Part shown: in pieces, positions 28,601 to 31,600 of the stretch
Layout: the number at the start of each line of letters is the position of its first letter
Numbering within the stretch: the first letter of the stretch is position 1
Assembly (NCBI GenBank): GCA_964016885.1
Contig: OZ024741.1
Location: forward strand, 71,920,001-71,984,000
Direction of reading: 5' to 3'
Length of the DNA stretch: 64,000 nucleotides
From: Eledone cirrhosa
Taxonomy: Eukaryota
Translations under genes and position numbers: made by a program
The notes under the pieces: model-generated
Told to the model about the DNA's origin: nothing
Databases searched by the model: none
Seen by the model: only the letters and a program-made list of their open reading frames with translations

Positions 28601-31600
28601 TTGTCATGGATGTTCTGCTGGAACAAGAGAGGTGAGGGTCTAAAGTGTATCTGCTCACAACTGCATTGGCACCGAAAACCCTTAGTGAAAACAAAGTACA
28701 TACTACCAAGTCATATTTGATTCGTGATGGCTCTGGTAGTAAAAATATAGCGATGTTACTAATTCAATTCAATTTTCACCAGCACTTTCTAATCAATTGA
28801 TGTTTATATATATATATATAAAGAGAGAGAGAGAGAGAGAGAGAGAGAGAGAGAGAGAGAGAGAGAGAGAGAGAGAGAGAGAGAGAGAGAGAGAGAGAGA
28901 GAGAGAGAAAACAGCTGGCATTGTCATCTTCAAAATAGCTCTCACAGGAATGAGGGGTGGTTATGGACAAATATATTTACTTCCACACACTTATACTATA
29001 TATATATATATATATATATATATATATATAAGAATTAAAATACTAGAGTGTGTTGGAGTTAAACACCCTCTTCGTATTATAGAAATGACAGTAAAGGTAT
29101 AGCTCAATGTAATTAAACAGAGCCGAAGAATTATGAAAATAAACCAAAGAAGCCTTCAATACATCAAAAGTCTTTATTAGCGAACAATGTTTCGTCCTAT
29201 TAAGGACTCATCAGGGCAATTAAAGCTATAAGAAGCACTATCGGCCAATACAAACCGAAAACTTTTAACAGCTTTTCATTCTAGCTTTCATAATCTTTTG
29301 GCTACCATACCATATCTATCTTCTTAAATATTATATTTTCACTATTAACACCTTATGAGTTTATATCTGATTATATATTTTATTTTATATTAGTTTATTT
29401 TATTTTATTTGGATTCTTCTTTGGATAATTACCCCCCCCCCCCCACACACTTGTCATTTGCCCCTTCAAATATACTATAATTATATTCAATTCTCTTTTA
29501 TGCTCCTTTCTATTGTATAATACAGTATATTGATTATGATTTTATGCTCTTTCGTATCCTCCATACATTTTTTTTTTCTGTCCCCATTGGCCGACCATAA
29601 TTCTATTTAAAGTCCGTTTATTAGATAACGTTATGCAACTGATAGTAAAATATTTCATTATTTTCTAGATATTTTTATAGTGATATCTTAAACTTTGGAG
29701 TTTTTGATTACTTAAACCATAGCTAATATTGTATTGACTTATTATGTATTTTAAATATTTTCAATATTAATTAATTTAATAGGGTTTTCTAGTCATTTAT
29801 CCGGGTTTGTTTCCTAAAATGTTTTACTTAACTGCATGTGACACCTAAGTTAATACTTTTGTTTTTGTTTTTCGATTTCCGGTTGATTTTATTTATATAT
29901 TTATACTACCGTGCGTAGTTTTCTGTCTGGCTCTTATTCACTTATTCACATATGTCTGTCCACCAACCACGTAATTATATTATACTATGTTTAATATTTT
30001 ATATTGAAGTTGTTATTCCACTCTTTGTAAACGTACTATTGATCTTTATTATTTATTGGCAGTATCGGTAGAGTGTCGGACGCCATGCTTTCTAGCATAG
30101 TTACGTCCCTTTACGATCTGAGTTCAAATCCCGCCGAGGTTGACTTTGCCTTTCATCCTTATGGGGTCGATAAAATAAAGTACCAGTAATGCACTGGGTA
30201 ATTGCTGGCCTTGTGCCTAAAGTAGAAACAATTATTTACCGATTATTAAATGTACCATTATGTTATGTTAAATTTTGTAAATTCTGTAATCATCATCATC
30301 ATCATCATCATTTCATTTTACGTCCGCTTTTTCCCTGCTTGCAAGGGTGGGACGGGAACTGATGCTGGCTTGATTTCTACAGCTGGATGCCCTTCCTAAC
30401 ACCAACCTCATTTACAGTGAGTGCTGGGTGCTTTTTTGCCGTGGCACCTCCACGACCACTTTGCAGTGGAATGATAGGGACCCCAGCCCCTATCATCTCA
30501 TTTCTACAGCTGAGTAAACTGGAGCAATGTGAAATAAAGTGTCTTGCTCAAGGAAACAACACATCACCCGGTCTGAGAATTGAACTCACAACCTTTCGAT
30601 TGCAAGCCCAATGCTCTAACCACTAATATGTTTATATTTTTATAATTTTTGTACCAACATAATTTAGTTCTGTACAATATTTTTTCTCACCTGGTCTATA
30701 TGATTTGTTAAGTTATATGCCATTATATTATAATATTGTTATTATAGTGTTATTGTAACATTTATATTGTTTGTGCAAATTAACCGGAGATTATCTATTA
30801 TATAATTATATAGTTTATTATATATTATATGTTTACTTTTAATCATTTCTTCTCCATTTTATACTGTAAATAATATATGTATTATATTTTTATTTTTATT
30901 TTTATTTTTATTCTTATTATTCTTATTTACATTTAAACTCTTAATAAGGGTTAGTTTGTGCTTGTATTGATATATATGTATATATGTGTACATATGTATA
31001 TATATATATATGTATATTCGGCCTTTTAATTTTAATATTATTATTATTATCATTATCAATTATATTATATTATATTATATTATATTATATTATGTTATGT
31101 TATATTATATATAGTACAATAATTCCCGCTCTATATCACCACCTTTGTTTAGCTTTAGTTTTTGCATTGGACTATATTTGTAATATGGTTCAAAATGTTA
31201 TTCACTTCCTTAACAATTTTTACTTGATAATTTTTACCCGATAATTTTCCTATGCTTTAATGTATGTACACTCCATATTCTTCTGAGTTTTCGGCTTGTA
31301 TTGGCCGATAGTGCTTCTTATAGCTTTAATTGCCCTGATGAGTCCTTAATAGGACGAAACATTGTTGGCTAATAAAGACTTTTGATGTTTTGAAGGCTTC
31401 TTTGGTTTATTTTCATAATATATATATATATATATATATATATATATATATATATATACATAGATAGAGAGAGAGAGGGAGAGATTAATGAATTTTTGTT
31501 TAATGAATTGTAATGAGAGAAAATTGTAGTCTCACTGCTACTACTATTCCTACAAAATCCTCACCACTCATTGCTTCAAAGACAATGACAGGTTGAAGAT

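Follow-up and report, generated by a model that had tools for sequence, protein, structure and literature searches.

The window, a 64-kb stretch of DNA numbered from its first base, contains part of an ADGRA3-like gene on the minus strand. The exon at 10034-10580 (-) matches an adhesion GPCR A3-like protein from Octopus vulgaris at 89% identity, with 64% of the query aligned, and two LRR exons enclose an intron of approximately 36.5 kb (25021-61497, minus strand). The first-pass annotation of this DNA, made from its letters, described an element with inverted, hammerhead-bearing arms inside a 36-kb intron, the left hammerhead being on the host pre-mRNA strand, with which the minus-strand LRR exons agree. 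An inverted duplicate of the ADGRA3-like exon 4603-4833 (-) is found at 6910-7056 (+), its protein being 82% identical to the homologue. Furthermore, 25199-25228 (-) is a partial duplicate that comprises the acceptor region, with altered AG, and the first 30 nt of LRR exon 24949-25020. A cysteine motif at 35083 was considered as LRRNT exon and rejected, since it lacks splice context and is out of order.

The intron contains a unit of 2.4 kb (29031-31419) with a (TA)n tract on either side (Table 1). Its inverted arms, 29130-29263 and 31286-31419, measure 134 nt each and differ at three positions (31295/29254, 31367/29182 and 31389/29160), the same arms and mismatch count as initially described. 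The original bounds, 29130..31419, hold on the right; the left one shifts to 29031, since the 99 nt outside the arm are part of one repeat family with it. Of this tail, 29031-29034 were included because they abut the (TA)n tract, the comparison with sequencing runs starting at 29035. The main copy has 2,157 nt, or 1,639 nt without two later insertions. Both inserted repeats have many close copies in the 64-kb window as well as Pol III box-like motifs, which fits the two SINE insertions annotated before; based on copy number and box-like words we take 30049-30237 and 30289-30617 to be SINEs. T-over-A skew is 0.25-0.29 throughout the hammerhead strand versus -0.03 and -0.15 in the flanks. Any target site duplication (TSD) would be hidden in the (TA)n flanks.

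Table 1. Features of the hammerhead-bearing unit and its host intron, in window coordinates.
Feature	Position	Strand	Basis or remark
Host ADGRA3-like LRR exon, downstream of intron	24949..25020	-	72 nt, proper splice sites
Left (TA)n target tract	28997..29030	.	Sequence
99-nt 3' extension (tail) of inverted copy, absent at right end	29031..29129	-	High depth and contigs over tail-arm border
Hairpin with AC-rich loop near tail end	29045..29069	-	Fold; likeness to PAc RT start stem-loop is analogy only
Left arm, inverted 5'-truncated terminal-repeat copy (pLTR-like)	29130..29263	-	Arm alignment and runs
Left minimal type-I hammerhead, position 17 at 29183	29176..29220	-	1.1-2.1 pair broken by private change at 29182
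Inversion junction, base 29263 common to both sides (1-nt overlap)	29263..29264	.	Runs
T-rich non-coding body, left part, multi-copy	29264..30048	+	Other copies run upstream into different sequence; truncated here
SINE-like insertion 1, later, ends approximate	30049..30237	+	Repeats in window
Body piece separating both insertions	30238..30288	+	Assigned from position and composition
SINE-like insertion 2, later, ends approximate	30289..30617	-	Repeats in window
T-rich non-coding body, right part	30618..31285	+	Family sequence shown for approximately 30 nt beside arm only
Right arm, 3' terminal repeat, colinear with body	31286..31419	+	Arm alignment and runs
Right minimal type-I hammerhead, family-type stem I	31329..31373	+	Predicted cut after 31366
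Right (TA)n target tract	31418..31458	.	Overlaps final 2 nt of arm
Host ADGRA3-like LRR exon, upstream of intron	61498..61569	-	72 nt, proper splice sites

Four of nine listed sequencing runs were compared with 29035-30045 at 80% likeness: contig sets X1, X4 and X6, from three organisms, and the raw reads of RAD run X7. The tail occurs at repeat-level abundance, with a median depth of 68,487 in X1 and 527 reads in X7, and its border with the arm is spanned by contigs from X4 (record 9, 29035-29219) and X6 (record 15, 29035-29180; record 16, 29094-29263). Beyond 29263, loose ends match the inner flank of the right arm in three of the four runs (X4, X6 and 153 X7 reads), and X6 record 16 holds tail, arm and right flank in a single piece. 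In X1 and X6, what lies ahead of the left interior is another sequence. The four runs list no joint, and 29263 is not crossed by any of the 20 pieces listed out of 694. The order in the family is body, arm, tail. Loose ends, record 16 and the uncrossed junction together indicate that the body naturally ends in the right arm and that left arm plus tail form an inverted copy joined at 29263. A 2.3-kb unit with two fixed arms, as first proposed, finds no support, since other copies do not show the junction of left arm and interior. That both halves of the body are colinear is something we infer, the comparison having covered 29035-30045.

The ratio of arm to interior median depth is 67-fold in the X1 contigs and 19-fold in the X7 reads, where fixed terminal repeats would give approximately 2-fold; these are not copy numbers, since they derive from contig sums and from a RAD library with read ends at AATT/CATG sites, but both ratios point to many short end copies of the family. 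The interior itself is multi-copy, with as many as 16 distinct contigs covering a single place. One further group of X7 loose ends, which may represent few loci, enters (TA)n at the arm end. Clusters of X7 molecule ends were rejected as element termini, since seven of the eight shown are at AATT or CATG and the remaining one marks where the compared stretch ends. In addition, 72 X7 reads match the tail and then leave at 29131 into unrelated sequence; the tail is common to a second family or subfamily.

Long, near-perfect inverted arms, the lack of an ORF and TA at either side would also suit the terminal inverted repeats (TIRs) of a non-autonomous DNA transposon that inserted at TA and captured a hammerhead, TA being the target of Tc1-Mariner. 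Passages of the literature describe Tc1-Mariner elements as active in octopus. Such an origin is nevertheless highly unlikely: the 99-nt tail on one side makes the ends asymmetric, the left junction is not seen in other copies, arm to interior depth is far above 2 and an RNA motif lies on the outward strand. With arms that are not fixed to their own inner flanks and ends that are not symmetric, a TIR DNA transposon or MITE is largely refuted by the runs.

We consider it probable that 29031-31419 is a single dead insertion of a Penelope-like retroelement (PLE) in a (TA)n tract. With comparable confidence, the unit is read as a truncated main copy that ends in a hammerhead-bearing terminal repeat and is joined, on its other side, to an inverted 233-nt copy with tail. 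In the PLE units described in passages of PMC8557442 and PMC3846280, a 5'-truncated copy lies alongside in inverted orientation, one end may bear a tail, the targets are (TA)n and a clear TSD is lacking. Those of EN+ PLEs (Penelope/Poseidon, Neptune, Nematis and Hydra; relevant parts of Arkhipova 2013, PMC3846280, and Craig 2021, PMC8557442 Fig. 2) resemble ours by a 5'-truncated body with a hammerhead in the 3' terminal repeat, an adjoining inverted 5'-truncated copy, a single-end tail, a microsatellite target and no clear TSD. They differ in that our copy has no ORF, has a tail of 99 nt rather than the published 30-40 nt, and has at least 1.6 kb of non-coding sequence upstream of its end. 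Five EN+ PLE features occur here, namely the hammerhead terminal repeat, the inverted copy at the 5' end, the one-end tail, 3'-biased abundance and the (TA)n target; the partial tandem that forms direct pLTRs is not present in this copy. Through these five structural features the unit belongs with the EN+ PLE insertion units, and its clade is left unassigned. Against a PLE stand the absence of any RT or GIY-YIG sequence tied to the family, a tail that is longer than published and Rfam hammerhead scores under the gathering score in both arms. Penelope elements are abundant and partly recent in octopus, as stated in sections of PMC13282606 and PMC8967140, and the octopus family may already stand in repeat libraries.

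The Octopus Naiads (Naiad_Obim and Naiad_Ovul), listed in our comparison as from the same host genus, show (TA)n preference, a long T-rich 3' region and inverted structures. Naiads, however, are without canonical hammerhead in the passages of PMC8557442 concerned, whereas our unit has canonical core and stems. None of four short words of our family was found in the Naiad supplement, in which line breaks could hide one. Hence, Naiad membership was rejected.

Non-LTR retrozymes (passages of PMC7229834; bioRxiv 10.64898/2026.07.22.740005) are likewise non-coding, PLE-related sequences of high copy number with a type-I hammerhead. They consist of head-to-tail units of approximately 300 nt, whereas here two inverted single copies are found on a longer body. 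Arm and tail might be such a retrozyme unit, spreading via circular RNA, with the interior as unrelated DNA between two opposite monomers. The terminal 230 nt are indeed far commoner than the interior, the type-I hammerhead has a near-palindromic stem III that suits dimer cleavage, and PMC7229834 describes, in the part consulted, retrozymes in mussel. But other copies show the arm running on into the body, and the interior is also multi-copy with the same strand skew as the rest, which makes this improbable. A retrozyme at this locus was rejected, since the window has no tandem hammerhead and the four runs no joint, although arrays with extra sequence past 29035 would escape.

Each arm contains a CUGAUGA core, a 5-bp stem II, GAAA, a 2-bp stem III with a 3-nt loop and a GUU triplet, with U at position 17 (31366 in the right copy, 29183 in the left). 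The right hammerhead is complete, whereas the left one is without the 1.1-2.1 pair. Core and stems are thus present in both arms, facing outward, as the type-I assignment of the first-pass annotation had it. By searching for core and stem II, two hammerhead-like motifs and no others were detected in the 64 kb, whereas 100 block shuffles averaged 0.04. The full Rfam Hammerhead_1 model gave 32.3 bits (E 1.6e-5) for the left and 29.1 bits (E 1.9e-4) for the right copy, so the Rfam check suggested earlier comes out divided: both arms match, with scores just under the gathering score of 34. Also, no match in an Rfam scan of the whole window attained its gathering score. The damaged left copy outscores the right because Rfam aligns stem I in a shifted register.

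Minimal hammerheads occur in pLTRs and also as opposite-strand pairs 100-700 bp apart, according to passages of Cervera and De la Pena 2014 (PMC4209133). Metazoan PLE minimal type-I hammerheads, as these passages and Rfam RF00163 describe them, share the intact core, G10.1-C11.1 and a 2-bp near-palindromic stem III with ours, which differ by the apparently family-wide GUU, by arms that are 2 kb apart and by scores under the Rfam cut-off. The monomers fold weakly, with -6.5 kcal/mol for the right and -3.5 kcal/mol for the left hammerhead versus -12.7 and -9.3 kcal/mol for alternative folds. Stem III is near-palindromic in both, as expected for dimer cleavage. Apart from the Naiad study and a survey of twisters, the literature searches listed no paper on hammerheads in cephalopods.

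The runs show which arm carries the family sequence. At 29182 the base of the right arm is the family state (depth 94,851 of 95,959 in X1, 536 of 559 X7 reads, also X4 and X6), and at 29254 the family likewise has the right-arm base (228 of 252 X7 reads). Two of the three arm mismatches are therefore private to the left copy and one of these breaks the pair adjoining the cut site, so the previously noted damage to the left stem I (ggc>cgc) is real. The GUU triplet was earlier regarded as consistent with decay, but no alternative base at position 17 is found among the best 40 of 189 variant rows, and GUU is probably the family state. Neither do the best 40 of the 189 rows contain a substitution in 29183-29214; a 3-nt insertion in loop II is present in 92 of 543 reads. 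GUU is cleaved more slowly than GUC. It is listed as an active cleavage site in PMC3138052, and PMC1636495 does not mention its cleavage rate.

Pattern scans of at least 120 metagenome loci and 23 viral loci yielded the hammerhead core alone as common to ours, the best listed match being 37 nt. Among the matches listed for the metagenome loci, 8 of 122 comparable motifs have U as last base of the triplet. Locus L025 contains an intact 704-aa PLE ORF (229-2343), presumably Hydra-type judging from its motifs, whose direct repeats carry a hammerhead-like motif in sense orientation. Next to a (TA)n tract, at L025:2646-2956, another hammerhead is found as two antisense copies 281 nt apart, which agrees with ours at 29 of 31 nt; this arrangement is possibly a retrozyme inserted in a PLE end. 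Locus L042 (375-2579) encodes an intact 734-aa endonuclease-less PLE-type RT, approximately 480 nt upstream of a hammerhead, with 293 relatives that are mostly marine metagenome proteins.

It had been suggested that the left hammerhead could cleave the host intron co-transcriptionally and that its defects might reflect selection against cleavage. Transcription of the host gene reaches the right arm, as antisense, approximately 2 kb ahead of the left arm, and the other strand is likewise antisense-first. The arm-arm duplex amounts to approximately -224 kcal/mol versus -3.5 kcal/mol for the left hammerhead fold, and in the predicted fold of the host strand 132 of 134 arm positions are paired. 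The left hammerhead is predicted to be trapped in a 134-bp duplex on the host pre-mRNA. Since the antisense arm comes first and pairs far more strongly, intron cleavage is unlikely even without the private change, and the suggested cleavage finds no support. The same applies to selection: with two private changes, one that does damage would turn up approximately one time in three (a hand estimate which assumes that about 25 of 134 arm positions are critical), so one hit is unremarkable and selection is not needed. Co-transcriptional cleavage of ADGRA3-like pre-mRNA by the left hammerhead, now or in the past, followed by its loss through selection, is extremely unlikely, even though this hammerhead lies on the pre-mRNA strand and the pair that adjoins its cut site has a private change. 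By itself, too, its fold is not the minimum-energy one (-3.5 versus -9.3 kcal/mol). Moreover, a monomeric minimal PLE hammerhead was tested without cleavage (a passage of PMC4209133) and the PAc hammerhead needed protein (a passage of PMC11167929).

At 25020-61496 there are at least 34 inverted pairs, each of at least 100 nt and at least 85% identity, the closest being 441 nt apart. Since many of these coincide with SINE-like copies, long duplex RNA would be common in the host intron.

Coding capacity was assessed with Pfam, which yielded no family in the six frames of the element. Profiles of endonuclease-less PLEs, Hydra-type PLEs (70 proteins, also by tblastn) and coral PLEs (45 proteins) gave no significant match to the element, with a best domain at E 0.27; none of these profiles represents a mollusc Penelope, Neptune or Naiad endonuclease and a very decayed endonuclease relic could escape them. 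In control loci the endonuclease-less and coral PLE profiles did find broken PLE copies. Stop-codon counts in the element are mostly near expectation. By eye, the A-rich minus strand suggested a degenerate ORF, which was rejected given the Pfam, profile and stop-codon results. An interior without credible ORF, as annotated, is hence corroborated. The accompanying label non-autonomous applies to this copy and may or may not apply to the family, which continues upstream of the truncation at 29263, where an ORF may lie.

A variant of the PLE reading has a family of non-autonomous PLE derivatives, at least 1.6 kb long and lacking an ORF, that are moved in trans, with the same insertion structure and no full-length member with RT/EN. 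It refines, rather than excludes, the main reading. The 1,639 nt of main copy without coding relic agree with it, as do the non-autonomous PLEs with pLTRs described in passages of PMC8557442. Nevertheless, an ORF may lie beyond the truncation. Also, the Octopus Naiad entries of 3,946 and 4,022 bp in the PMC8557442 supplement, in the portion seen, combine proteins of approximately 920 residues with more than 1 kb of non-coding sequence and T-rich 3' ends; a long T-rich 3' region is hence compatible with an autonomous family and no proof of non-autonomy. We therefore regard the trans-moved derivative as possible, though doubtful. A more specific version has ORF-less PLE derivatives that form a highly abundant family in octopus, in which the 230-nt hammerhead-plus-tail module amplifies largely alone into (TA)n, with family-wide GUU, and in which the AC-loop hairpin that caps the 99-nt tail marks a second reverse-transcription start. 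This is rather unlikely; if true, the module family would be an intermediate of PLE and retrozyme and a large natural panel for testing the role of PLE hammerheads.

For the broken PLE copy, the following course of insertion can be envisaged. The PLE reverse transcriptase-endonuclease would nick both (TA)n strands, and two cDNAs would be primed on the element RNA at sites close to each other, the short end and the tail end. Both cDNAs would stop early and their 5' ends would be joined, by which both hammerheads come to face outward. In passages of PMC11167929, the PAc protein cleaves and extends both strands of AT-rich DNA, two internal starts delimit a tail, and the PAc hammerhead, which needs protein, is dispensable for insertion in vitro. 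The authors of PMC3846280, in the section on inversion, favour self-priming on an antisense template, an alternative to the joining step envisaged here. Each hammerhead would be a passenger of the terminal repeat, whose cleavage would need a partner copy or protein. Both hammerheads are predicted to be silent here, the complementary arm being transcribed first on either strand, and the one on the host strand would additionally suffer from the lost base pair adjoining the cut site.

The inverted hammerhead motifs are real, and what hosts them is most likely an ordinary broken PLE copy in an octopus intron. As it stands the unit has little significance, being one more decayed PLE-type insertion in an arrangement known from many animals. 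It does provide a modest entry point to a hammerhead-bearing octopus repeat family, slightly unusual in that its tail is long, GUU is apparently family-wide and terminal modules are in great excess. Outward hammerheads in inverted PLE units would always be antisense-first, which may partly explain their tolerance in introns.

Elsewhere in the window, open frames at 16998-17876 (+) and 48687-49058 (-) resemble C-terminal fragments of non-LTR retrotransposons, which we take to be of the RTE type and the restriction-like-endonuclease type, respectively. Long degenerate, trinucleotide-based tandem arrays at 38865-43650 and 50700-53700 contain very long spurious open frames and show strong GC skew.
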